Shown piece by piece: positions 7,160 through 56,311 of a stretch of DNA of 64,000 nucleotides; the first letter of the stretch is position 1; every line of letters begins with the position of its first letter. Origin of the DNA: Desulfobulbales bacterium (GTDB lineage: Bacteria; Desulfobacterota; Desulfobulbia; Desulfobulbales; BM004); the NCBI GenBank assembly GCA_041598875.1, contig JBFHXP010000002.1, positions 13,716-77,715 on the forward strand, written 5' to 3'. Below the pieces are notes generated by a model. The model made no database searches. It was not told the origin of the DNA and saw only the letters and a list, made by a program, of their open reading frames with translations. Both the position numbers and the translations under genes were made by a program.

Positions 7160-8368
7160 ATGACCTCTTTTTCTCTCAAAATGGCGCAAAGGGTTGCCCA
7201 GATCAAACCTTCACCCACCCTGGCGGTCAATGCCAAGGCCAAGGCCCTGAAGGCTGCTGGAGCTGATATTCTCAATTTCAGTGTTGGCGAGCCGGACTTT
7301 GACACTCCGCCCCATGTCTGTGAAGCCGGCAAGGCGTCCATTGACGCGGGATTTACCCGATACACCGCTGTCCCAGGCATCCCGGAGCTTCGTCAGGCAG
7401 TTGTCGACCGTCTTGCCGCCGATCGCGGCTGGAGCTACGAGCCCGACCAGGTCCAGGTGTGCTGCGGCGGCAAACATGGCCTCTACAACATGGCCCAGGC
7501 TCTGATCAACCCGGGCGATGAGGTTCTCATTCCCACCCCGTACTGGGTCTCTTACCCGCCCATTGTTCAGCTGGCAGGGGGAATTCCCGTACTGGTACCG
7601 CTGAGCGAGGAGAATAATTTTGACCTTGACCCGCGGGTGCTTGAGCAGCATGCGAGCCCAAAAACCAAGGCCATTATTCTCAACAGTCCCTCCAACCCCA
7701 TTGGATCGGTTTTTTCGGCTTCCGCGCTGGCGGCGGTGGGAAAAATGGCCCTGGAGCGGGGATGGATCATAATCAGCGATGATATCTACGACACCATTGT
7801 CTATTCCGACAATCCACTGCCCCACATTCTTGACGTAGACCCGCGCCTGAAAGATCAGACCCTCATCTTGAACGGGGTTTCGAAATCCTTTGCCATGACC
7901 GGGTGGCGCATCGGCTACACCATCGGCCCCCAGGTGATCATTTCCACCATGAACAGAATCCAGAGTCAGTCAACATCCAACGCGACATCAGTGGCCCAGA
8001 AGGCCGCCCTTGCCGCACTGACCGGCCCTCAGGACTTTCCGGTCATGATGCGGGACGCATTTCTTCCCCGCCGTGATTATTTTGTCCGCGAACTTTCCTC
8101 GATTCCCGGCGTGACCTGTGTCAACCCCCAGGGCGCATTTTATGTCTTCCCCAACATCTCCTCCTATTTTGGCAAAGAATTCAACGGCCGGTCGATCACC
8201 GGGTCACTTGACCTGGCCGACTATCTTCTTGATGAGGCCCTGATCGCCACGGTACCCGGCATCGCCTTTGGCGCCGACCCCTTTATCCGTTTCTCCTTTG
8301 CCACCTCCATGGAAACCATTGAGGAAGGGGTCAGGCGCCTGAAAACCGCCCTGGCCAACCTCAAGTAA
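7160..8368 (+). CDS. Class I PLP-dependent (aspartate-type) aminotransferase
   Basis: 402 aa. Contains SPSNPIGSV and the PLP-lysine motif GVSKSFAMTGWRIGY. Confidence 0.88.
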   Translation: MTSFSLKMAQRVAQIKPSPTLAVNAKAKALKAAGADILNFSVGEPDFDTPPHVCEAGKASIDAGFTRYTAVPGIPELRQAVVDRLAADRGWSYEPDQVQVCCGGKHGLYNMAQALINPGDEVLIPTPYWVSYPPIVQLAGGIPVLVPLSEENNFDLDPRVLEQHASPKTKAIILNSPSNPIGSVFSASALAAVGKMALERGWIIISDDIYDTIVYSDNPLPHILDVDPRLKDQTLILNGVSKSFAMTGWRIGYTIGPQVIISTMNRIQSQSTSNATSVAQKAALAALTGPQDFPVMMRDAFLPRRDYFVRELSSIPGVTCVNPQGAFYVFPNISSYFGKEFNGRSITGSLDLADYLLDEALIATVPGIAFGADPFIRFSFATSMETIEEGVRRLKTALANLK

Positions 8369-45252: not shown

Positions 45253-47331
45253 TCAGGACAAGAGCTTCTCGCCCCCCGGCGATGAGATAAACACCTTGAG
45301 GGCGCCAACAATCGCCGGATCATACCTGGTGCTGTCTTTTGCCAGGATCTCGATGGCCTCCCTGGGAGCCAGGGCGGAGCGGTAGGAGCGCGGCCGGCTC
45401 ATGGCGCAGAAACTGTTGGCCACGGCAAGGACCTTTGCCGTCACCCGAATCTGATCGCCCTTGAGACCTTGGGGATAACCGCTGCCGTCACTGTTTTCAT
45501 TCATCTGGCAGATGGTTTCCGAGACTGGAAGTTCGAACTCGATGTCCCGGAGGATATCCTCGGTATACTGCACGTGTTTCTGCATTTCCAGCTTCTCGGC
45601 ATCGGTCAGCTGGCCCGGTTTTGACAGGATCGCCTGGTCGACAAAGACCTTGCCGACCTGGGAAAGATAGGCTGCCAGTTCCACCGTGGCCTGCTCCTGC
45701 CCGTCAAGGCCAAGCTCCTTGGCCACGGCCTTTGAGACAACGCTCATCATTCTGGAATGGCCGGCGAGATAGGGATCCTTCATCTCTATGGTCTTGACAA
45801 AGGCGTTGATTGTCTGCCTGATGGTGCGCTCATTTTTCTCCTGGGCCTCCACCAGATGGGTAATATCGGTAAAGACCGAAACAATACCGGTGATCTCGCC
45901 GGCAGAATCGACAAAGGGGATCTTGGTGATCATCAGGTAATGGAGTTTGGAAAGAAGATAGATCTTTTCGCTGACCGTGACCGGCTCCTTCTTCTGCCGG
46001 ACCTGTTCATCGCTTACCTGAAGCCTTTTCGCGGTGTCATAGCCGAAAACGGCGCGGTCATCCGAGCCGATGATACTCTCCATCTCGCTGTCTACCGCCC
46101 GGGCAAAGGCCGGATTGACATACTGGTAATTGCCGGCATGATCCTTAAAGCCGATGTAGTCGGTAATAGTCGAATTGATGCTGTCCAGGAACTGGCGCTG
46201 GTTTTCAATCTGACCGGCAAGCTCCTTGAATGTCACGGCAATCTTTTTGTTCTCCACACCGATCAACCGCCACCAGGCAGCACCCAGAAGAAGAACCAGG
46301 GCCACCAGGCCAAGAACCGCGATGGCCACAAAGCTCCGCCGGTATTGCCTGAGCGGCCCGTTTGCGCTCTCATAGTCGGTTTCCTGGACAACCCACCAGT
46401 CAAGCTCCGGGACCTTCTGGCCCAGGGAATAGACCATGGTATCGCCCTGCACCGACCGGCGGACCCCGTAGGCCATCCGCCCCTGGTCATTGAGCTCAAT
46501 CGCCTCTATCTCCAGGAGGCCGGATGGGGCCCAGGGGACAATCTCATGAAAGACCCCGTCATCAACCTGAACCAACCGGGCGCGCTCTCCCTCCTGAAAA
46601 AGCGGGGAGACCGCGAGAAGCTCGTCCATTTTCTGGGCAACGATCTTTGACAGCATGAGTACGGCCACCGGATCCGAGGGATTGTCGGTGGCGCCATGCG
46701 GCGGCAGGATCGGCAGATAGATATCGAGCACCATCCCCTTGCTGGTCGACCGCAGGGGCGCGAAACGGATCTCGCGGGAGCTGAACACCGATTGGGCCAG
46801 ATCTTTCTGCCGGGCAGAAAGGGCGATGGTGGAGCTGTCGGTGGCAATATAAGACTGGCCGTTGCGATTGATGACCCGGCCATCGAGAAAACCGGAGTAC
46901 TGGACAAACTCGCTGAGCAGGTTGGTCATCATCGGCAGCTGCTCGGCAAGGCCATCGCCCACCCCTTCCGCCATTCGCTGCGGGTACAGATGCTGGTTAA
47001 CGATGATCGAGACGTCTTCCTCGTGGAGATCGATTTCCGCGGCATAGAGGCGGAATATCTCGGACTGGATAATCCGGTCGCCCTGGGCGGCAAGACCGGC
47101 GAGCCAGGTGGAAATGACCTCCGCGCGGCTATTGGCCAGCAACTCAACCCGTTTTTCCGTGGCCTTTTCCAGTTCGCGGGTCCGGTCGGCTATGTTCAGC
47201 CTGACCAGGAAAAATGCCGCGGCAGACAGGATGATGAGTAAAGGTATGCCCACCTGAAAGACTCTGGCCTTAAGGCCGGCAGGTGACTCAATTTCGTGGC
47301 CCAGGGCTGCTTTTATGATCTGCTTGTCCAT
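45253..47331 (-). CDS. Transmembrane Cache-like/PAS protein with a degenerate HD-GYP domain
   Basis: ORF 45253-47382. ATG 47331 (MDKQ) has a GAGGGG RBS and lies 23 nt after the BTLCP stop. Two TM segments flank a periplasmic region of about 285 aa ending LDWWVVQETDYE (Cache-like), followed by a PAS-like segment. The C-terminal domain reads GHSRMM...AAYLSQVGK...QKHVQY...QMNENSDGSGYPQGL...VANSFCAM. Confidence 0.8.
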   Translation of the reverse strand: MDKQIIKAALGHEIESPAGLKARVFQVGIPLLIILSAAAFFLVRLNIADRTRELEKATEKRVELLANSRAEVISTWLAGLAAQGDRIIQSEIFRLYAAEIDLHEEDVSIIVNQHLYPQRMAEGVGDGLAEQLPMMTNLLSEFVQYSGFLDGRVINRNGQSYIATDSSTIALSARQKDLAQSVFSSREIRFAPLRSTSKGMVLDIYLPILPPHGATDNPSDPVAVLMLSKIVAQKMDELLAVSPLFQEGERARLVQVDDGVFHEIVPWAPSGLLEIEAIELNDQGRMAYGVRRSVQGDTMVYSLGQKVPELDWWVVQETDYESANGPLRQYRRSFVAIAVLGLVALVLLLGAAWWRLIGVENKKIAVTFKELAGQIENQRQFLDSINSTITDYIGFKDHAGNYQYVNPAFARAVDSEMESIIGSDDRAVFGYDTAKRLQVSDEQVRQKKEPVTVSEKIYLLSKLHYLMITKIPFVDSAGEITGIVSVFTDITHLVEAQEKNERTIRQTINAFVKTIEMKDPYLAGHSRMMSVVSKAVAKELGLDGQEQATVELAAYLSQVGKVFVDQAILSKPGQLTDAEKLEMQKHVQYTEDILRDIEFELPVSETICQMNENSDGSGYPQGLKGDQIRVTAKVLAVANSFCAMSRPRSYRSALAPREAIEILAKDSTRYDPAIVGALKVFISSPGGEKLLS

Positions 47332-47354
47332 TTTCCCCTCGCTCTGCTCTGTCG

Positions 47355-48107
47355 TTATTTCTTCAATGGAATATGTGCCCAACGGCTCAACTCATCGAAT
47401 GAATACTGTGCAACATAATGTTTGTATCTGGTGTGCTCAAAGACGCCATCAGTCAAATTATCAAGGATATAGATAGTCTCATCGAGGTACACCGCCAGCA
47501 CCGCATGGGCAATATTCCTGATGGTGTCCCGGACAATCACCACCCGCAGCTGGCCGGGGGCAAACCCCAGTTCCCTAAAGACAAAATATTTGGTGATGCT
47601 GTAATCCTCGCAATCCCCCGAGAGTTTGAGAAACTCCTGGGGGGTCGCCCAGTAATCACCAACCCCGTAGACATCCATATCAAGCCGGTAGGGCCATTTA
47701 TTCACATAGCGGCTGACGAATTTCAACTGCTCGAACCCTTTCAGGGAACGCGCCTGGGCGATCAACTCCTGCCAGCTGGCCGCGCCGGGAGGACACCCCC
47801 CAGAGGCCGATCCGCAGCTGTTCAGGGCCCGCACCTGCTCCTTGACGCTGCCGAGTATCCGGAGCCATTGGGTCAGAACCTTGTGCGATCCCTTGAATTC
47901 AATGGTATCAAGCAGCAGGATCCGTTTCTCCCCCGCGCCTGCATCCTGTTCACTGCCCTGACCCGGTCCGGGCATGGCAAGACCCGCCAGCAGCAATGAT
48001 AATAAAACCACCCTGACGATCACCAACCGACTCCAGCGGCTGCCATGCAAGAGAGAGTGAGCAATATGAGGCATAGAAGAAAAAGCCCTGGAATCGTTTA
48101 AGAACAT
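47355..48107 (-). CDS. Bacterial transglutaminase-like cysteine protease (BTLCP, LapG family), periplasmic
   Basis: 250 aa. Signal peptide, then GDCEDYSITKYFVFRELGF (Cys), HAVLAVY (His) and ILDN (Asp), which is the LapG-type triad context. Confidence 0.8.
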   Translation of the reverse strand: MFLNDSRAFSSMPHIAHSLLHGSRWSRLVIVRVVLLSLLLAGLAMPGPGQGSEQDAGAGEKRILLLDTIEFKGSHKVLTQWLRILGSVKEQVRALNSCGSASGGCPPGAASWQELIAQARSLKGFEQLKFVSRYVNKWPYRLDMDVYGVGDYWATPQEFLKLSGDCEDYSITKYFVFRELGFAPGQLRVVIVRDTIRNIAHAVLAVYLDETIYILDNLTDGVFEHTRYKHYVAQYSFDELSRWAHIPLKK

Positions 48108-48188
48108 CTTAAAAAATCACCCTCATTCTTCAAAATATCCTTATTTTTGTGCCCCACGGTAGTCCCGGCAAATGGACACTGCCGGGTC

Positions 48189-49508
48189 TCATCGTTCCCT
48201 GAGGGCATTCTGCCTGGCCTTGATGATCGGTTTCAGCAGGTACTCGAGAACCGTTTTTTTCCCGGTCAGGATATCGACGCTTGCGGTCATCCCCGGAATG
48301 ATGGGCAGTTTTTCCCCCCGGTAATTGATCGCATTGGTTGTGGTTCTCAGCTTGACCATGAAAAATTTTTCCCGCCGGTCATCCTCAATAGTATCGGCGC
48401 TGATCTGCTCGACAAACCCTTCCAGGCCGCCATATATGCCATAATCATAGGCAGTGATTTTGACCATGGATTTCTGTCCCGGGTGGAGAAAAGCAATATC
48501 CGCCGGCCGGATTTTCGCCTCGATGAGCAGGGTTTCATCCAGGGGAATGATTTCCAGAATCGACTCCCCGGGCTTGACCACCCCGCCGAGGGTATTGATG
48601 TAGATCTTCTTGACCGTGCCGCGGACCGGCGACCGGACATCCGTTCTGGTTGCCCGGTCCTGCCCGGCAACATTCGCCTCGAGAAGTGATTTCAACTCGC
48701 CCCGCTTCTTGTTCAGTTCAGCCGCTGCCGTTGATTTAAATTCGGCACGGCGCTGCGCCTGGCGGCGCTTGATCTCCTGGGCCGCCTCAACGGCGCGGGG
48801 GATGTTCAATTCCAGGCTTTGTATCTCACCGGTAATGGAATTGATCTCGCGCTCAAGGGAGAGATACTCAACCTTGGGAAATAATTTTTTCTCCACAAGA
48901 GGGGTGGCGATGGCCACCTGCTCCCTGGCCAGTTCGAGGTTCTTTCCCAACTGATCCTTCTTGCTCTCCATCCCGCCTATCTCCTGCATCTTCTGCTGGT
49001 ACTGGGAGTTGAGGATGTTCAGCTCAAGCTGCAGTTGCTCCTTGCGGGCCGCATAGATCTGTTTCTGATCCATGACGATCTGCGGGTCATGTCGGGCAAT
49101 TTCGGCCGGCAGGGAGAGTTCCTGCTCGTTCACCTCCGCCTCCAGCCTGGCAATGGACGCCCGGTGCTCCATTGACTGGGAAAAAGAATCCCGATAATGG
49201 CTGGCAGCCTGTTCATTGCTCAGGCGGACAAGGATATCACCCGGCTGGACAATCTGGTTTTCCCGAACCATGACCTCCTCGAGAATACCCCCCTCAAGAT
49301 GCTGGATGACCTGAACATGACGGGAGGGGATAACCTGTCCGCTGCCCCGGGTCACCTCGTCAAGAACAGCGTAATGGGCCCAGGCGACAAAACAGATAAC
49401 GAGCAGGCAGACCGCAAACGAGAGGAGATAGGCCGCGGAGTTCCCGTGGCGCTGCAGGGCGCTGCTCACCTCGTCCATAAATTCCGCATCCGTTGTTTTT
49501 CTGCTCAC
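48189..49508 (-). CDS. HlyD-family type I secretion membrane-fusion protein
   Basis: 439 aa. N-terminal TM, long coiled coils, and a C-terminal ...PGMTASVDILTGKKTVLEYLLKP typical of HlyD/LapC. Confidence 0.88.
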   Translation of the reverse strand: MSRKTTDAEFMDEVSSALQRHGNSAAYLLSFAVCLLVICFVAWAHYAVLDEVTRGSGQVIPSRHVQVIQHLEGGILEEVMVRENQIVQPGDILVRLSNEQAASHYRDSFSQSMEHRASIARLEAEVNEQELSLPAEIARHDPQIVMDQKQIYAARKEQLQLELNILNSQYQQKMQEIGGMESKKDQLGKNLELAREQVAIATPLVEKKLFPKVEYLSLEREINSITGEIQSLELNIPRAVEAAQEIKRRQAQRRAEFKSTAAAELNKKRGELKSLLEANVAGQDRATRTDVRSPVRGTVKKIYINTLGGVVKPGESILEIIPLDETLLIEAKIRPADIAFLHPGQKSMVKITAYDYGIYGGLEGFVEQISADTIEDDRREKFFMVKLRTTTNAINYRGEKLPIIPGMTASVDILTGKKTVLEYLLKPIIKARQNALRER

Positions 49509-49579
49509 TCTGCTCTCTTCCCGAAATAGCTGGTTTTCATCCAGAACAAAAACCGTTCCGGACAGACACCCGCCTAAAA

Positions 49580-51853
49580 TTACGCCTGGCCCGGAACATG
49601 CTGCTGCCTCTGTTCTTTCAGGAACTCCAAGACCTTATCCCTGGGACCATCCACCAGAACCCGGCCCTTTTCCATCACAATCAACCGATCGACAAGCGTG
49701 AGCATTGACTGGCGGTGCGAGACAACAACCAGGGTCTTCTGTTTGAGAACAGAGGCCAGGCGGGACTTGAAAAGCGCCTCCATCAGTGTATCCATGCTGC
49801 TGGTCGGCTCGTCGAGAAGCACAATATCAGGATCACGGACCAGGGCCCGGGCAACGGCAACCGCCTGACGCTGGCCGCCGGAAAGGTTCATGCCCCGCTC
49901 GCCGACCTGAAGCCCGAACCCGGCCGGGTGATTTCGTACAAAATCAGTGACCCCGGCAACGGTTGCTGCCCAGAGAATGGCCGCATCATCAGCAAAAGGC
50001 GCGCCAAAGGCGATATTCTCCCTGATGCTGCCATAAAAAAGATATTTGTCCTGCGATGCATAGCCGATTTTCTGCCGCAACTCGGCCACATCGAGCTGCC
50101 TGATATCCAGACCGCCGACCATGACGCTGCCCGAGGCAGGGGTGTAGAGCCCGAGAATCAGGCGGCCCAGGGTACTTTTGCCGGATCCCATCGGCCCGAT
50201 GATCCCAACTTTTTCTCCGGCGCTGATGTGCAGGGTAACGGTATCCAGGGCCTTGAGTTCGGAACTGGGATAGGAAAAAGAGACCCGGTCAAATGTGATG
50301 CTGCTGCCGATTTTACCATGATGCACATACTCCCTGCCATCGGGCCTCTCGCTGGGGATCTCCATGACCATGTTGAGCGATTTGAGGGCCATGCGCGACT
50401 GCTGCAGCCGGGTCAGCATTGCCGCCACCGCACCCAGGGGGGCCATTGCCCGGCCGACCAGGATGGTGCAGGCGATGAGCCCGCCCATGGTCAGAACCCC
50501 TTCCTTGATCCGAAATACTCCCCAGACGATGACCGCCACACTGACCAGCTGGGTGGCAAACTGTGAAAAGGTGATGGAAAAGGTTGCCAGTGATTTTGCC
50601 TGGGCCGAAGAGCGGGCATTCATGCCCACCACGCTCTCCCACCGCCCCTGGACTCTGCTCTCGGCAGTGCTGGTCTTGATCGTTTCAAGCCCGTTGATCG
50701 CCTCGACAAGAATGGCATTTTTCTGGGCCGACTCCCTGAAACCCTTTTCTATCGCCCGCTGAAATGGAAACTGAATCAGCACGCCAACCAGAATGACAAC
50801 CGGCACGGCAATGGCAGGGGCATAGGCAACCGGGCCGCCGATAAAGGAGACCAGGAGAATAAAAAGCACAAGAAAAGGGATATCCACCAGGGAAAGAAGG
50901 GTGGTGGAACTGAAGAACTCACGCAGTGATTCGAATTCGCGCAGGTTGTTGACCATGGAGCCGGTGGAATCGGGTTTATGGTCCATCTTGATTGCCATAA
51001 CGTGCTGCAGGAGACGACTGGCAAGGATAACATCGGATTTTTTCCCTGCCATATCAACGAAATACCCGCGCAGCAGACGAAGGAGAAAATCAAAGACATA
51101 GGCAATGCACACCCCCACCGCCAGGACCCAGAGGGTCTCAAGGGCATTGTTGGGCACCACCCGGTCATAGACATTCATCACAAAAAGCGGCCCGGCAACA
51201 CCCAGTATATTGATAACAATACTCGCGAGAAGGACATGCTTATAGAGAGGATAAAAGTGGCCGATCGTGCCCCAGAACCATCTCTTGCCCTTGAGCAGTT
51301 GCAGTTTACTGGCCCGGTCATCCAGACGGCCCCTGGCCTGGACAAAAAGCGCCTTGCCGGTATAGAGCGGCTGCAGGGTTTCCAGGGGAACGCTCTGACT
51401 GGTGTCCGGGGTCTCGGCAAAGATCACATCGGCCATGTCCGAGTGTATCCCGCCCAGAACGCAGCTGTTGCCATCCTTTAACAGAAGGATGCACGGCAGA
51501 GTCAGAGGGTTGATCCGGGCTATGGCCGGCCGCTTGAGAATTCGGGCATTCATCCCAGCCTGTTCCGCGGCCCGGACACAGAGATGGGGTGAAAAATCCT
51601 GACCGCTGAGGGGCAGCGAGGCAAGCAGCGCGCTGATTGAAACACTCCTGCCCTTGAGCCTGAGGAGTGTCTCGAGACAGGTCAGCAGGGGAGGCCGCGG
51701 GTCGGCGCTCTGACCGGACGACGGGGCAGCAGAGAGATCGACCTGGCCGGCCCGCTGGGTTGCATTTCCCTGAGAGTCAACAGGGCGAGTCCCGTGGTCA
51801 CCCTTTTCCGGGCCCATGGGTTCTGTTTCCTGAACTGAAGAGGAGGTCTGCAT
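49580..51853 (-). CDS. Type I secretion ABC permease/ATPase with an N-terminal C39-like domain (LapB/LssB-like)
   Basis: 757 aa. C39-like region (LLTCLETLLRLKG...), six TM segments, Walker A GPMGSGKST, signature LSGGQRQ and Walker B IVLLDEPTS. Confidence 0.9.
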   Translation of the reverse strand: MQTSSSVQETEPMGPEKGDHGTRPVDSQGNATQRAGQVDLSAAPSSGQSADPRPPLLTCLETLLRLKGRSVSISALLASLPLSGQDFSPHLCVRAAEQAGMNARILKRPAIARINPLTLPCILLLKDGNSCVLGGIHSDMADVIFAETPDTSQSVPLETLQPLYTGKALFVQARGRLDDRASKLQLLKGKRWFWGTIGHFYPLYKHVLLASIVINILGVAGPLFVMNVYDRVVPNNALETLWVLAVGVCIAYVFDFLLRLLRGYFVDMAGKKSDVILASRLLQHVMAIKMDHKPDSTGSMVNNLREFESLREFFSSTTLLSLVDIPFLVLFILLVSFIGGPVAYAPAIAVPVVILVGVLIQFPFQRAIEKGFRESAQKNAILVEAINGLETIKTSTAESRVQGRWESVVGMNARSSAQAKSLATFSITFSQFATQLVSVAVIVWGVFRIKEGVLTMGGLIACTILVGRAMAPLGAVAAMLTRLQQSRMALKSLNMVMEIPSERPDGREYVHHGKIGSSITFDRVSFSYPSSELKALDTVTLHISAGEKVGIIGPMGSGKSTLGRLILGLYTPASGSVMVGGLDIRQLDVAELRQKIGYASQDKYLFYGSIRENIAFGAPFADDAAILWAATVAGVTDFVRNHPAGFGLQVGERGMNLSGGQRQAVAVARALVRDPDIVLLDEPTSSMDTLMEALFKSRLASVLKQKTLVVVSHRQSMLTLVDRLIVMEKGRVLVDGPRDKVLEFLKEQRQQHVPGQA

Positions 51854-52315
51854 GGTTCAGTTATTCATCATAGGTGAGCATTGTTATTCTGACCTGACAC
51901 CTGAAGTGATAAAACCATACCCAGCAGAGACCTGTTCTGGCAACCGATATCACGATAACCCCTAACCCTTCAGAGACCCCTGGATGGATGTTTCCGGAAA
52001 AAAGGAAAACCCGACCCCTGCCACCCCAAAAGGGGTTTCCCTGCACCACGCCGCGGAACAAGTCTTGACAGCTTTCCTGATTACCACGAAACAACAAGAA
52101 CTTAAGGCACCATGGCGCCTCCGCGAACAGGGGGGGGACCCGCCAGGTTTACCCCAGGGCATGTTCACCTCTATCAGCCCACTTCCGACAATCCGGACAC
52201 TTTCCGGAAATCCACTCGAAAAAAACGAAAAAAACAGGTTCCGAAGTGACCGAAAAACCCGGCTCAAAAACTGATAACACTGATATTGCTCGAAAAAAAC
52301 AAACCCGGAAAAAGT

Positions 52316-52331
52316 TGGCCCGGAAATTGCT
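52316..52331 (+). promoter_or_regulatory. Candidate sigma-54 (-24/-12) promoter
   Basis: TGGCCCGGAAATTGCT matches TGGCAC-N5-TTGCW spacing exactly. It lies about 425 nt upstream of the PEP-CTERM gene. A TCCGGA-N5-TCCGGA repeat at 52192-52208 could be an activator site. Confidence 0.4.
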
Positions 52332-52755
52332 TTATTCTTATCAACCCTTCATACTCACTCGCCTGCTGCCAGGTCCCCTGAGGAGTATGTGTGCCCGCGG
52401 AGCGCAGATAAACGGTCTCACAAAAAAGCCAGATATGTATTGCACAAAAACGGAAAAAATGATAGTGATTTCTCCAGTCTCCTGATTCCAGGTGAAAATT
52501 AGTACATGCTTACACAACAAGATCACCAAAGAGCTTCTGCCCGATCCAGAGTTTGCTGTGCAGGAGGGGTAGTGCACCGCTTCGAACACACCGGTGGTTT
52601 TTTTCAGCAGAAACTAAAAGTCTAACCCAGCAGCAGAACCGCACGTTCGCGAGGCCGGATACTCCCCTTATGCCTGGAAATCTCTGGCGGGTGATATGAA
52701 CAGTGGCCCGGTGCTGTCTGTGTAGCGGTCCGAAAACTTATTTAGGGTATTTGCA

Positions 52756-53502
52756 ATGAAAACACGAGCACTCTTCCTGTCAGTTGGGCTGTCGATCCTT
52801 CTCCTCTCTTCCCCGGCATTTGGCTCGGCTTATACGTATAATGTATCGAGTGTGCGCGATACTGTCACCGGGGGAATGATGGATGGGCTGGAGGTGACTG
52901 CATACTATGAAAACGGCACATCTTCGAACGCATTCTGGGGATACCTGGGCGCACAACCAGGCGCGACCTCAGGTCGGGCTTATGTCTCTGACGGGTATCA
53001 ATTGTTTCAGGGTGGCAACACCTATCTTTCCAACTGGACGCTCACCAATAGCAGTACGAGCAAACTTATCTCCCTGACCATCCAGGGCATGGGCATGGAT
53101 TCAAATAATGAAAGACCACGGGCAAACGTTGTATTTGATTCATTTTATGGGACAGGAACCGGTGCTGACAAACGAACCCCCGGCTCCGAGTTGGGCAGGT
53201 TCATTGCAGATCCCCTTGGAACCAACCCGGTACCCGTTACCTTCCTCTTCTCGGATCCGGTCGCCCATAAGGGAACAGTCTATGGTGACCTCTATGCCAC
53301 CCTCACCCTGACATTTGGCGGGGGTGGTCTTGCGAAATATGATCGTACAACTGCACCAAATAATAAAATTGTTTTCACGGCTGACACGGACAGCATAACC
53401 CCGGTACCAGTGCCCGCAACCCTCTGGCTCCTGGGCTGTGGCATCCTCTCCCTGATCGGTTCAAGGAGAAAGACCGGCAGCAGCCCGCGCCTGAACGCAT
53501 AA
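52756..53502 (+). CDS. Secreted protein with a PEP-CTERM-like C-terminal sorting signal (VPVP variant)
   Basis: 248 aa. Signal peptide (…SSPAFG/S). The C-terminus has TPVPVPATLWLLGCGILSLIGSRRK, i.e. a Pro-rich motif, a TM segment and a basic cluster. Confidence 0.7.
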   Translation: MKTRALFLSVGLSILLLSSPAFGSAYTYNVSSVRDTVTGGMMDGLEVTAYYENGTSSNAFWGYLGAQPGATSGRAYVSDGYQLFQGGNTYLSNWTLTNSSTSKLISLTIQGMGMDSNNERPRANVVFDSFYGTGTGADKRTPGSELGRFIADPLGTNPVPVTFLFSDPVAHKGTVYGDLYATLTLTFGGGGLAKYDRTTAPNNKIVFTADTDSITPVPVPATLWLLGCGILSLIGSRRKTGSSPRLNA

Positions 53503-53539
53503 TATCCACAACGACCATATTTACGATTTGGAGACCGCC

Positions 53540-54769
53540 ATGCCAGAATTAAATGCTCCTGCCCAACCATCGACAGCCACCCGTGATAACCTGGTGCGGG
53601 TCGGCAAACCCCAGGCCGGCCAATCCTCGGCACTGGTCCTCGCCCCTGGCGCAGCCATAGCCCTTGACTTTGACATAACCGAGGCCGAGGCGATCCTGCA
53701 AAACGGCGCGTTGATCTTCCGCTTTGCCGATGACAGCGAGATCCAGCTGCAGAACTTTGAGGCCGTGCTTGCCAGCACCGAACTTATCCTTCAGGACGGC
53801 ACTGAAATAAGCGGCGACCAGGTGATGGGGGTTATCCAACCGGGCGGCGACGAACCTGCTGCCGGGCCTGGCTCGACAAGCGGCGGCGCCGGTGAATATG
53901 ACGACTATCTTGGCAGTATAACAGGCCCGATTGAGCGGTTGGGCACCCTTGACCCGCGGCAATTGACCGACCCCCAGACCGATCTCGAAGGGGGCGCGGG
54001 CTTGGTACCACCTGATCCGCCTGAGACACCCCTTGTTCTGGCCGATGACACGGATCTTCTGTATTATGACCGGATCTTGTCTGAACAAGGAGAATTTTCT
54101 GAAGTAGGCAAAATACTACCGATTCTCAAGATATATAATGCCGGGCCAGGCCCGGACGACACCCTCTATGACAGCCACACCCGGGGCAATGTACTGAGCA
54201 ACGACATCGGAGACGGCCTGCGGGTAACCGGCTTTACCCACAACGGTACGACATACGTTGCGGACGGATCGACCGTGACCCTGAGTTCCGGGGCCAGGTT
54301 TTCCCTTGGAGCGGACGGCTCCTACCGCTACGCCTATGATACCACCGAGACGGTTGATAGCACGCAGAGACCAAATTTTAGCACCCTGTCTTTCCCAGGA
54401 CTCAATGCCGGTCACGCTCCTGGACAGGACAAACATGCCATTGCCCGCATTGAGTTATCCGATCTGACCGATGATGACTGGCTCCAATTTGACTGGAGCG
54501 ATACTGCTGGCAACAAACATAATGCCGTATACCCTGAATTCGCCATCCAAAACAACACAGTAGAACTCTATGACCTTGACGGCTTTGCCAGCCTGGACAT
54601 CACGGTCCTTGCTGGGTCTGTCACTTTCGAATCACTCAAGGTGGAATACACCGATTCGACATTGACCAAAGAGACAATCCAGTACCAAGTGACAGACGCC
54701 TACGGCGCCAGCGGTTCGGCCAACCTTATCCTCGACTTTGCCGCAACCAACCCACCGCCCGTGGCGTAA
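53540..54769 (+). CDS. Candidate small LapA-like T1SS substrate/adhesin with a PAAG di-alanine site
   Basis: ORF 53528-54769. ATG 53540 has a GGAG RBS. No Sec signal peptide. The N-terminal LIFRFADDSEIQLQNFEAV region is followed by GGDEPAAGPGSTSGGAG. The C-terminus has a cadherin/VCBS-like YQVTDAYGASGSANLILDF. Confidence 0.5.
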   Translation: MPELNAPAQPSTATRDNLVRVGKPQAGQSSALVLAPGAAIALDFDITEAEAILQNGALIFRFADDSEIQLQNFEAVLASTELILQDGTEISGDQVMGVIQPGGDEPAAGPGSTSGGAGEYDDYLGSITGPIERLGTLDPRQLTDPQTDLEGGAGLVPPDPPETPLVLADDTDLLYYDRILSEQGEFSEVGKILPILKIYNAGPGPDDTLYDSHTRGNVLSNDIGDGLRVTGFTHNGTTYVADGSTVTLSSGARFSLGADGSYRYAYDTTETVDSTQRPNFSTLSFPGLNAGHAPGQDKHAIARIELSDLTDDDWLQFDWSDTAGNKHNAVYPEFAIQNNTVELYDLDGFASLDITVLAGSVTFESLKVEYTDSTLTKETIQYQVTDAYGASGSANLILDFAATNPPPVA

Positions 54770-54790
54770 CATCCGGTTTTATCTAAAAAA

Positions 54791-54822
54791 CCACATCCCA
54801 AAAAAACAGGGGTGTGGTTTTT
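54791..54822 (+). terminator. Rho-independent terminator after the 409-aa gene
   Basis: ccacatccc / ggggtgtgg stem (one G-U pair), 9-nt A-rich loop, then TTTTT. Confidence 0.7.
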
Positions 54823-54949
54823 GCGTGCCAGCGCGCATCACTGAATTGACATTCATTCAGCACGTGCAACTGGCGTTTTTTTTAAAAAAACAACTGATTT
54901 TAGAGGTGTACGCAAATAAAGGAGAACTCTCAATAGGGGAGAAGTTGCT

Positions 54950-56311
54950 ATGCATAAAAAAATCGCTCTATTCACCGCAATTGCCGTGGCCCTCATACAC
55001 CTGCCGCAGGTTTCATCTGCCGGAGAAACCGTGACAGTGCAACAAAGTGTGATAGATACCCTCACAACCAGCCCGCGCCTGGAAATGATGAAACATAATC
55101 GGACCGCGATCAACCATGACATGGCCAAGGCCCGGGGCGGCTATTTCCCGCAACTTGACGTTGTGGCCGGCTATGGTTTCGGCGCCCATAAAAGCCTGAC
55201 CACCCGAAATGCAGCGGCCACCGCCCCCTATGATGACGACTGGATGGCCCGCAGTGACGCCGCCCTGATTCTGCAGCAGCTTGTTTTTGACGGAAACGAG
55301 GTGAAAAGCCAGGTTGATATTGACCGATTCAAGATAGACTCGATCAATTACCGGGTATTTGACAATGCCGAGGCCCTGGCCCTTGATGCCGCCCTTGCCG
55401 CCCTTGAGGTCTATCGCCAGCAGGAACTGCTCAAGGTTGCCGAGGCAAATGTGGCGGCCCACGAAAAAATTCTCGAATCCCTCAAGGTTATAGAACAGGC
55501 CGGCGCCGGCAGCAGCGCCGATGTCATCCAGACCCGGGCCCGCCTTTCACGGACCATGGCCACCCGGATAACGGTGATGAGCGACCTGGAAACCGCCCTG
55601 TCCAATTTTGAGCGGTTGGTCGGGTATCGGCCGGATACCGTGCAGTTTCCCGAAAATGCCGATGCGGTCCTGCCGGCTTCCCAGGATGAAATTATCAATA
55701 TGGTGATAGCCTCCAACCCGAAATTCCTGGCAGCGGCCTCTGATATCAAGGTCGCCGGGGCGGTGGTCAATCTGGAGAAATCTAAATATTCCCCCAAAAT
55801 ATACCTGGAGGGGGTTCTGAAATATGAAGATGGTACCGATGGGGTGGAAAGCTGGATCAGAGACGAGGGAGTCATGGTCCGGATGCGCTGGAACCTGTTC
55901 AACGGCATGGCGGACGACGCCGCGGTCAAGGCGGCCAGGGCACGCAAACTGCAGGAGGAATTAAACCGGGAAGATATCATCAGAACCATTGCCAACGACA
56001 CCAGGGCAACCTGGTCCAGATACACTGCAGCGGTGCAAACGGAAAAGGCCTTTGCAGAAAACGTCAGCTTCAACGAAGAGACCCGGACACTGTACAGCGA
56101 CCAGTTCTCCATCGGCCAGCGAAGCCTTCTTGATCTTCTCGATGCTGAAAACGAGGCATTCCAGTCCCGGGGCCTCTACACCTCGGCCAAGGTTGACCGC
56201 GCGGCCACGGCCTATAAGCTTCTCGCCCTGCCCGGAAAACTCATAGATACGTTGGGCATCGATTCAGCTATCTACAAAGATCCCAAATATGAAAAGAGCA
56301 GGAAAAACTGA
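54950..56311 (+). CDS. TolC-family type I secretion outer-membrane channel (LapE-like)
   Basis: 453 aa. Signal peptide, then two tandem OEP-type repeats (…RGGYFPQLDVVAGYG…, …KYSPKIYLEG…). Confidence 0.85.
   Translation: MHKKIALFTAIAVALIHLPQVSSAGETVTVQQSVIDTLTTSPRLEMMKHNRTAINHDMAKARGGYFPQLDVVAGYGFGAHKSLTTRNAAATAPYDDDWMARSDAALILQQLVFDGNEVKSQVDIDRFKIDSINYRVFDNAEALALDAALAALEVYRQQELLKVAEANVAAHEKILESLKVIEQAGAGSSADVIQTRARLSRTMATRITVMSDLETALSNFERLVGYRPDTVQFPENADAVLPASQDEIINMVIASNPKFLAAASDIKVAGAVVNLEKSKYSPKIYLEGVLKYEDGTDGVESWIRDEGVMVRMRWNLFNGMADDAAVKAARARKLQEELNREDIIRTIANDTRATWSRYTAAVQTEKAFAENVSFNEETRTLYSDQFSIGQRSLLDLLDAENEAFQSRGLYTSAKVDRAATAYKLLALPGKLIDTLGIDSAIYKDPKYEKSRKN

Follow-up and report, generated by a model that had tools for sequence, protein, structure and literature searches.

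A DvhDG-type Lap locus in a Desulfobulbales bacterium whose probable dedicated substrate is a 409-residue surface protein

Which protein does a Lap-like secretion and release locus serve when the putative adhesin encoded beside its secretion genes is only 409 residues long? The question is raised by positions 45253–56311 of a 64-kb stretch of DNA, hereafter the window, from one genome of a Desulfobulbales bacterium (GenBank assembly GCA_041598875.1, contig JBFHXP010000002.1). A preliminary description of this stretch had recognized a complete Lap-like locus of seven genes, and the open reading frame (ORF) table and profile searches bear out the coordinates and families given there for all seven. 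We consider it highly probable that the locus is a Lap system of the DvhDG type and that its dedicated substrate is a minimal surface protein of 409 residues (the mini-cargo), not a giant adhesin. Counts among relatives are limited to loci with enough flanking sequence. The features of the locus, as assigned here, are as follows.

45253–47331, minus strand: predicted inner-membrane receptor of the DvhD type for cyclic di-GMP (c-di-GMP), 692 residues, with a transmembrane segment, a periplasmic dCache domain, a second transmembrane segment, a PAS domain and a degenerate HD-GYP domain
47355–48107, minus strand: BTLCP cysteine protease, LapG/DvhG-like, with an N-terminal signal or anchor segment, 250 residues
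48189–49508, minus strand: periplasmic adaptor of type I secretion, HlyD/LapC-like, 439 residues
49580–51853, minus strand: ABC permease/ATPase of type I secretion, LssB/LapB subclass, with a degenerate C39-like N-terminal domain, 757 residues
51854–52755, no strand: divergent intergenic region, 902 bp
52316–52331, plus strand: sigma-54 (−24/−12) promoter-like site TGGCCCGGAAATTGCT, 424 nt 5' of the PEP-CTERM-like gene
52756–53502, plus strand: PEP-CTERM-type secreted partner protein, 248 residues
53540–54769, plus strand: mini-cargo, 409 residues
53852–53866, plus strand: predicted protease cleavage motif E105-P-A107|A108-G109
54786–54822, plus strand: intrinsic terminator-like hairpin and U-run, starting 17 nt past the cargo stop codon
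54950–56311, plus strand: outer-membrane channel, TolC/LapE-like

The receptor had been called atypical, and this holds in relation to LapD. Its two transmembrane segments enclose a periplasmic domain, Pfam assigns PAS_4 and HD_5, no Pfam match to LapD_MoxY_N, HAMP, GGDEF or EAL was obtained in the receptor, and the HD-GYP domain is degenerate, with HD replaced by SQ and HH by MN (LSQVGK and MNENSDGSGYP in the translation). However, the receptor is typical of the published DvhD class: it matches the solved DvhD structures in the dCache domain (9rc2, E = 2e-52), the PAS/HD-GYP region (9rc0, E = 3e-87) and the HD-GYP domain (9rbz, E = 3e-61). Judged by these alignments, it is a full-length orthologue of Desulfovibrio vulgaris DvhD over all three solved fragments. 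DvhD, published in 2024 and 2026 (PMC10990149, PMC13090378), carries the same SQ and MN substitutions, binds c-di-GMP without hydrolysing it and controls the protease DvhG (PMC13090378; PMC10990149). Residues of the canonical c-di-GMP site were read off the HMMER alignment to the DvhD structures, with the numbering of PMC13090378; Y523, L577, K582, Y621, M646, R650 and Y652 are identical, and E668 is conservatively replaced by D. With seven of the eight canonical residues identical, the receptor is a predicted c-di-GMP binder.

The Lap-like reading had been made to depend on a BTLCP/LapG-like protease. The protease matches PF06035 with 71 bits (cut-off 27) and the LapG structures 4u65 (E = 8e-21) and 4fgo; its GDCEDY, AHAVL and LDNL motifs align with the Cys, His and Asp positions of these structures, and a D-C-E calcium site, aligned to both, flanks the catalytic Cys. 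The score against the LapG equivalog model NF045674 is 92.1 bits, below the cut-off of 320. On these alignments the enzyme is classed as a BTLCP homologue but not as a LapG equivalog. Thirteen loci (L012, L023, L027, L029, L032, L034, L039, L042, L063, L065, L067, L069 and L075) have protease ORFs of 316–420 residues beside the DvhD gene, sizes that are longest-ORF calls, compared with 250 residues in the window. Their long N-terminal extensions bring to mind D. vulgaris DvhG, for which an additional transmembrane region at the N-terminus has been reported.

A scan with a DvhD profile, using one genome per species, gave 163 relatives, from which 80 loci were kept. Nearly all of these belong to Desulfobacterota, including Desulfobacterales, Desulfuromonadales, Desulfovibrionales, Bilophila and Lawsonia. 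Where the flank suffices, the protease gene lies directly upstream of the receptor gene in 72 of 74 loci, and the corresponding counts for an upstream adaptor gene and ABC gene are 67 of 69 and 61 of 63. The genes for the ABC exporter, the adaptor, the protease and DvhD are thus a conserved four-gene core, syntenic in about 97% of loci, and the comparison with related Desulfobacterota proposed in the preliminary description finds these genes co-conserved. For two relatives of DvhD (L051 and L054, 43% identity), the flanking 10 kb on each side contain no gene for a protease, ABC exporter or adaptor; these may be orphan receptors.

The gene reported as an ABC exporter with a C39-like domain passed the LssB-type model TIGR03375 (947.6 bits, cut-off 693.1) as the sole type I secretion ABC model, and fell short by wide margins with the HlyB, PrtD and bacteriocin models. 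Its N-terminal domain scored 19.4 bits against Pfam C39, short of the 22 bits required, as would be expected if this C39-like domain is degenerate. This weak C39 match is what would speak for another explanation, which the preliminary description had itself raised: that the ABC, adaptor and TolC genes constitute a bacteriocin-, lipase- or toxin-type secretion system unrelated to the protease and the receptor. It turns out that the exporter passes the LssB/LapB-type model only, that ABC, adaptor, protease and receptor genes keep their synteny (61/63 to 72/74 loci), and that the surroundings encode neither a double-glycine leader peptide nor an RTX toxin. The model scores and the core synteny refute the idea of an unrelated secretion system, which we regard as barely credible.

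The adaptor, described as an HlyD-type membrane fusion protein, reaches 402.6 bits against TIGR01843 (cut-off 208.65). The TolC-like channel at 54950–56311 matches PF02321 above the cut-off, with 167 bits in two stretches, and is 55–57% identical to the TolC genes at the same position in relatives. Every Lap component, namely ABC exporter, adaptor, protease, receptor, channel and cargo, has a counterpart, as had been claimed, that of the channel being a TolC-family gene just short of the TIGR01844 cut-off. The seven-gene layout is repeated in L002, L004, L005 and L009, and the covered portions of L087, L088 and L089 are consistent with it; because it recurs in relatives, the arrangement is no chance juxtaposition. 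In a single relative, L002, a gene for a 109-residue protein of PF05635 (the 23S rRNA intervening-sequence protein family) lies between the ABC and adaptor genes (7273–7602).

The mini-cargo, reported as a 409-residue PAAG protein, carries EPAAG at residues 105–109 of the 53540–54769 product, with the dialanine at 107/108. The motif conforms to the [T/A/P]AAG consensus, and the scissile pair of DvhA is 106AA107 (PMC10990149, PMC13090378). In the family alignment EPAAG and the following SGGxGEY and IxRLGTLxPR are invariant in nine of nine members, and the motif block is also present at the N-termini of adhesins of 695–1153 residues that adjoin other DvhDG loci. An AlphaFold2 model of the cargo has a beta-rich module at residues 17–100 (predicted local distance difference test score, pLDDT, about 80), in which a helix at 92–99 stands just ahead of the cleavage motif; residues 101–215 are disordered, forming a linker of about 105 residues, and residues 216–401 form a beta-sandwich head of about 190 residues. 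According to the model and the alignments, the cargo thus carries a DvhA-like retention module, a targeting helix, a putative cleavage site, a disordered linker and a beta head. The same anatomy of module, helix, site and unstructured stretch has been described for DvhA and DVU1545 (PMC13090378). In the 409-residue sequence no Sec signal was found, and neither a GGxGxD motif nor a HemolysinCabind match indicates RTX repeats.

A word-indexed search with the cargo returned the cargo alone and was too weak to find its relatives, which required an exhaustive HMMER search of 1.84 billion cluster representatives. This search found four full-length relatives of 399–449 residues. Some 90 more proteins, from 125 to 2139 residues long, match either the N-terminal 150 or so residues of the cargo or its residues 215–285 or 343–409 as repeated domains; the N-terminal portion is homologous to the N-termini of DvhDG-linked adhesins. 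The small cargo is rare: no more than eight loci were found to have one (the window, as L001, and L002, L004, L005, L009, L087, L088 and L089). Their cargos are 374–449 residues long, and their receptors are 55–62% identical to that of the window. With P0122 the cargo family has nine intact members, none with a frameshift. The statement that the cargo is only a few hundred residues long is thus correct: the protein is complete at 409 residues and conserved in relatives. In other DvhDG clades, complete cargos have 695–1153 residues and incomplete ones more than 1821. An apparent 333-residue cargo in L019 is really an RTX adhesin of about 1000 residues broken by an assembly gap.

Could the 409-residue gene be the decaying remnant of a giant adhesin that has lost its repeats, in a locus that is itself being lost? 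Residues 215–285 and 343–409 do look like one copy each of domains that occur as 5–16 repeats in long proteins, and the cargo ends in a Big_9-like strand motif, as do adhesins of 842–1153 residues. However, the family keeps its nine unbroken members of 374–449 residues across receptor identities of 55–62%, and the machinery genes are all intact and conserved. Synonymous divergence (dS) is saturated for most pairs, so that usable ratios of nonsynonymous to synonymous substitution (dN/dS) come from L002–L087 and a few other pairs only; in the single unsaturated pair for the cargo the ratio is 0.19, indicating purifying selection. This value rejects decay and largely refutes the remnant explanation, which is most improbable.

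A more serious alternative, which we nevertheless judge unlikely, is that the secretion system and protease mainly serve one giant adhesin, or several, with genes in another part of the genome, as with DVU1545 in D. vulgaris and MapA in P. fluorescens. The 409-residue protein would then rank as a secondary substrate, fill the pore as a plug or placeholder, or compete for the protease as a decoy. Additional LapG substrates distant from the lap operon occur in several organisms (PMC13090378), large adhesins adjoin the machinery at most other DvhDG loci, and the 64 kb covered here hold no giant adhesin: among the scanned ORFs of at least 150 residues in the window, neither a giant adhesin nor an exosortase nor a sigma-54 activator was found. 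On the other hand, in the small-cargo loci with enough flank it is the small protein that fills the slot beside the secretion genes, the flanks covered contain no large ORF with a retention module, and the small protein retains the full retention and cleavage anatomy under purifying selection. A distant giant adhesin would also be compatible with the small protein as a substrate, and disputes only its status as the sole one.

Several points nevertheless weigh against the 409-residue protein as the dedicated substrate of a DvhDG-type system. Secretion, cleavage and c-di-GMP binding are predicted from homology, and the analysis covers 64 kb of genome, so giant substrates may be encoded elsewhere, and the genome may lack an exosortase or RpoN. 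The TolC gene scores 223.1 bits against TIGR01844, 2 bits under the cut-off of 225.15. The cargo model is of moderate confidence (mean pLDDT 60), and the cargo has neither RTX repeats nor a recognizable C-terminal secretion signal; type I secretion signals are generally poorly conserved. Finally, the bridging site of DvhD is changed at two of three positions in the window receptor (P567 to D and R569 to A, with K520 kept). The consensus of 19 sequences of the DvhD family likewise has D at the P567 position, which suggests that the bridging site may be specific to D. vulgaris; on this alignment the third c-di-GMP molecule of the D. vulgaris crystal may not occur throughout the family.

How the cargo is produced is suggested by the region in front of it. 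The non-coding region of about 900 bp noted previously is a gap of 902 bp (51854–52755) that, except for one promoter element, aligns poorly with those of relatives. In the window by itself the sigma-54 match is not significant (2 found compared with 1.28 expected). However, the element TGGYAYN5TTGCT is present in the correct orientation in the orthologous gap of all eight small-cargo loci, and it is this recurrence, in gaps that can otherwise hardly be aligned, that supports the site. In the relatives the element is found at the following positions.

L002: 4353–4368
L004: 5293–5308
L005: 4891–4906
L009: 2582–2597
L087: 2476–2491
L088: 570–585
L089: 2806–2821

It precedes the partner start codon by 126–424 nt, the leader of the window being the longest (424 nt). 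By this comparison, the production of cargo and partner is tied to a predicted sigma-54 promoter, from which the two are probably co-transcribed. A c-di-GMP riboswitch or other known RNA was sought in the 902-bp gap, and no Rfam family matched even at E ≤ 5; the 418-nt leader folds no more stably than usual (z = −0.5). A hairpin followed by T7 within the leader (52577–52606, plus strand) has a free energy of −5.6 kcal/mol and z = +0.7, and is probably not meaningful.

In L002 (12496–15851), L003 (5146–8501) and L005 (12564–15736), a second sigma-54 promoter lies just 3' of the receptor gene, together with genes for a Sec-dependent 383-residue fn3/Big_13 protein and a GAF-sigma-54 activator; in the window polA occupies this place. 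The cargo promoter is a candidate target of this activator. The 383-residue fn3 protein (L002, L005) was considered as a cargo and rejected: it is Sec-dependent, no retention module is present, and the window encodes nothing that corresponds to it.

The terminator placed between cargo and TolC genes in the preliminary description corresponds to a strong hairpin with a U-run (54786–54822; −20.7 kcal/mol, z = −4.57, none of 200 shuffles as stable). A simple scan for sigma-70 promoters and terminators did no better than on shuffled sequences, and overlooked this hairpin because of its 9-nt loop. At least three relatives, L087, L005 and L009, have a comparable but different GC-rich hairpin (CATCCGGGYCCC...GGGCCCGGATG) with T-runs in the same place. 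The window hairpin is flanked by an A-run as well as the U-run, and could act bidirectionally. Of the proposed arrangement as two divergent operons, the divergent gene sets stand; the strong terminator, in contrast, suggests three transcription units, with TolC probably a separate unit or reached by read-through.

The gene between promoter and cargo had been described as encoding a PEP-CTERM-like protein. In the window copy a signal peptide is followed by some 180 residues of beta domain and by a VPVPAT-transmembrane-RRK tail, and in these respects the description is right; its PF07589 score is 17.7 bits, however, under the cut-off of 20.7, and the tail weakly matches several NCBIfam PEP-CTERM families. 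A partner gene with a product of 204–250 residues lies immediately 5' of the cargo gene in eight of eight small-cargo loci. Signal peptide and beta domain are common to all eight, the family tail has the form VP[EIVL]P-transmembrane-basic, the canonical VPEP is present in the relatives L089, P0224 and P0225, and some members reach the PF07589 threshold. The AlphaFold2 model of the partner (pLDDT 76, predicted TM-score 0.70) found no match in a fold search against the PDB. Profile comparison of cargo and partner found no relationship between them, and among the scanned ORFs of at least 150 residues in the 64-kb window there was no match to an exosortase family. One distant partner relative, in L086, stands alone without a type I secretion system. 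On the sequence comparisons, the partner is no bystander but a conserved member of the cargo cassette that diverges together with the cargo.

A second DvhDG clade has a comparable arrangement. In L052 (4759–5388, minus strand) and L076 (4726–5427, minus strand), a tail protein of about 210–230 residues is encoded directly 5' of the cargo, which is followed by TolC; these cargos are retention-module adhesins of 1153 and 842 residues, respectively, without RTX. Except for the tail (AVPVPAAVWLLGSGLAGL..RRR), the tail protein is not homologous to the window partner. That a protein of other ancestry but with this tail occupies the same slot suggests that PEP-CTERM-type proteins and retention-module cargos may have been coupled recurrently, in a design not described before. 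The literature searched contains no mention of PEP-CTERM and LapG together, and no link of PEP-CTERM to a type I secretion or LapG locus.

Within the cassette the rate of divergence is far from uniform. Between L002 and L005, receptor, protease, adaptor, ABC exporter and TolC are 84–92% identical in amino acid sequence; the retention module of the cargo is 89% and its cleavage region 82% identical, compared with 45% for the linker, 40% for the head and 41% for the partner protein. Between L002 and L087, TolC is 96%, the cargo 91% and the partner 68% identical, with a partner dN/dS of 0.72. These comparisons mark both cargo head and partner as hypervariable relative to the machinery, and the fast-evolving parts coincide exactly with those predicted to be extracellular. 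The divergence of head and partner would reflect either diversifying selection or cassette exchange; the data fit both. Head and partner are probably surface-exposed, and either act together, as head and ligand or anchor, or share a diversifying pressure. Their co-location, co-transcription and co-divergence suggest that the partner either works jointly with the head or shares its exposure. A tentative and rather doubtful extension is that the two evolve together as cognate partners and form a polymorphic module for surface recognition, whose production depends on sigma-54 and whose display or shedding depends on c-di-GMP. If this were true, the locus would be a switchable device for cell–cell (kin) recognition or matrix docking, and no general surface adhesin.

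Taken together, the assignments point to the following mechanism for the mini-cargo. Reasoning from the homologous LapA and DvhA, we expect the 409-residue protein to leave the cell, C-terminus first, by way of the ABC exporter, the adaptor and the TolC-like channel. The folded N-terminal retention module would be too bulky for the channel, and the cargo would stay threaded in TolC, the disordered linker sitting within the pore and the beta-sandwich head outside. At high c-di-GMP, the DvhD-like receptor would bind the ligand in its degenerate HD-GYP domain and restrain the periplasmic BTLCP protease; when c-di-GMP drops, the protease would cleave A107|A108 and release the head. Given the sigma-54 promoter upstream of the cassette, an enhancer-binding protein would govern the production of cargo and partner, whereas c-di-GMP would set retention.

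The closest known system is DvhABCDEG of D. (Nitratidesulfovibrio) vulgaris Hildenborough, DVU1012–DVU1020 (PMC10990149, PMC13090378). The two share the dCache-PAS-degenerate HD-GYP receptor with SQ and MN, the BTLCP protease with its D-C-E calcium site, an LssB-type secretion system, the order ABC–adaptor–protease–receptor, and a cargo with retention module, targeting helix and PAAG near the same residue (107/108 in the window, 106/107 in DvhA). In contrast, DvhA has 3,038 residues, and the repeat array, vWF domain and RTX/serralysin-like C-terminus of DvhA are absent from the window cargo. The window further differs in having a PEP-CTERM-type gene and a sigma-54 promoter ahead of the cargo, cargo and TolC genes divergent from the ABC gene, a short protease with a signal- or anchor-like N-terminus, and a receptor that does not conserve two of the three DvhD bridging residues. 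Like LapABCDEG of P. fluorescens Pf0-1, the system would combine retention in the TolC pore by an N-terminal plug, release by a BTLCP protease and inside-out control by c-di-GMP, and the two share the ABC subclass (TIGR03375) and the adaptor family (TIGR01843). However, the window receptor is unrelated to LapD, having no LapD_MoxY_N, HAMP, GGDEF or EAL domain, and with neither a LapD-type receptor nor a LapG equivalog the locus stands outside the canonical Lap family.

Smith et al. defined LapA-like proteins as those of more than 1000 residues with a C-terminal RTX and an N-terminal [T/A/P]AA[G/V] (bioRxiv 10.1101/198937). The window cargo agrees with this definition in the dialanine motif only; because size and RTX both fail, the published search would have missed it. 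The Lap system also displays small engineered LapA scaffolds at the surface and releases them under c-di-GMP control; for this, a retention module and a C-terminal end with a short cargo suffice (bioRxiv 10.1101/358705), and the window cargo seems to be a natural counterpart of these scaffolds. The scaffolds are synthetic, however, and keep the LapA C-terminal secretion domain with RTX, of which the window cargo has none. The partner resembles PEP-CTERM/exosortase proteins, such as the flocculation protein PepA (NF033554), in its signal peptide and VP[EIVL]P-transmembrane-basic tail, but its VPVP lies below the Pfam threshold and its globular domain has no known relative or fold match. The machine is thus of the published DvhDG class, and the new part is the cargo module. 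As read from the alignments, what is new is a natural minimal substrate, an obligatory PEP-CTERM-type partner, predicted sigma-54 control and hypervariable, presumably exposed parts.

The locus is set among housekeeping genes. In the window polA lies at one flank, an SLC12-type transporter gene (cation-chloride cotransporter family) is found a few genes beyond the other, and mreBCD, nuo-like genes and others lie farther off. In L004 the seven-gene locus is surrounded by genes for a branched-chain amino-acid ABC transporter and AFOR genes, and in L002 and L005 by genes for a sensor kinase and a periplasmic binding protein. Since the surroundings differ among these lineages, either all seven genes have moved together or rearrangement has affected their flanks.

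Lap-type systems have been viewed as machines for giant RTX adhesins, and a conserved substrate of about 400 residues shows that they are probably put to use with a minimal cargo as well. Genome surveys have been blind to this small-cargo class, the searches having demanded more than 1000 residues and RTX motifs. Unlike DvhA, with its 9.2-kb gene, the whole system including its cargo is small enough to be easily cloned and reconstituted, and such a tractable system could make retention, threading and the control of DvhG by DvhD directly testable. A possible, previously undescribed link between exosortase-type surface proteins and c-di-GMP-gated proteins of type I secretion is also indicated by the obligatory partner, which diverges in step with the cargo head, and by the sigma-54 promoter.

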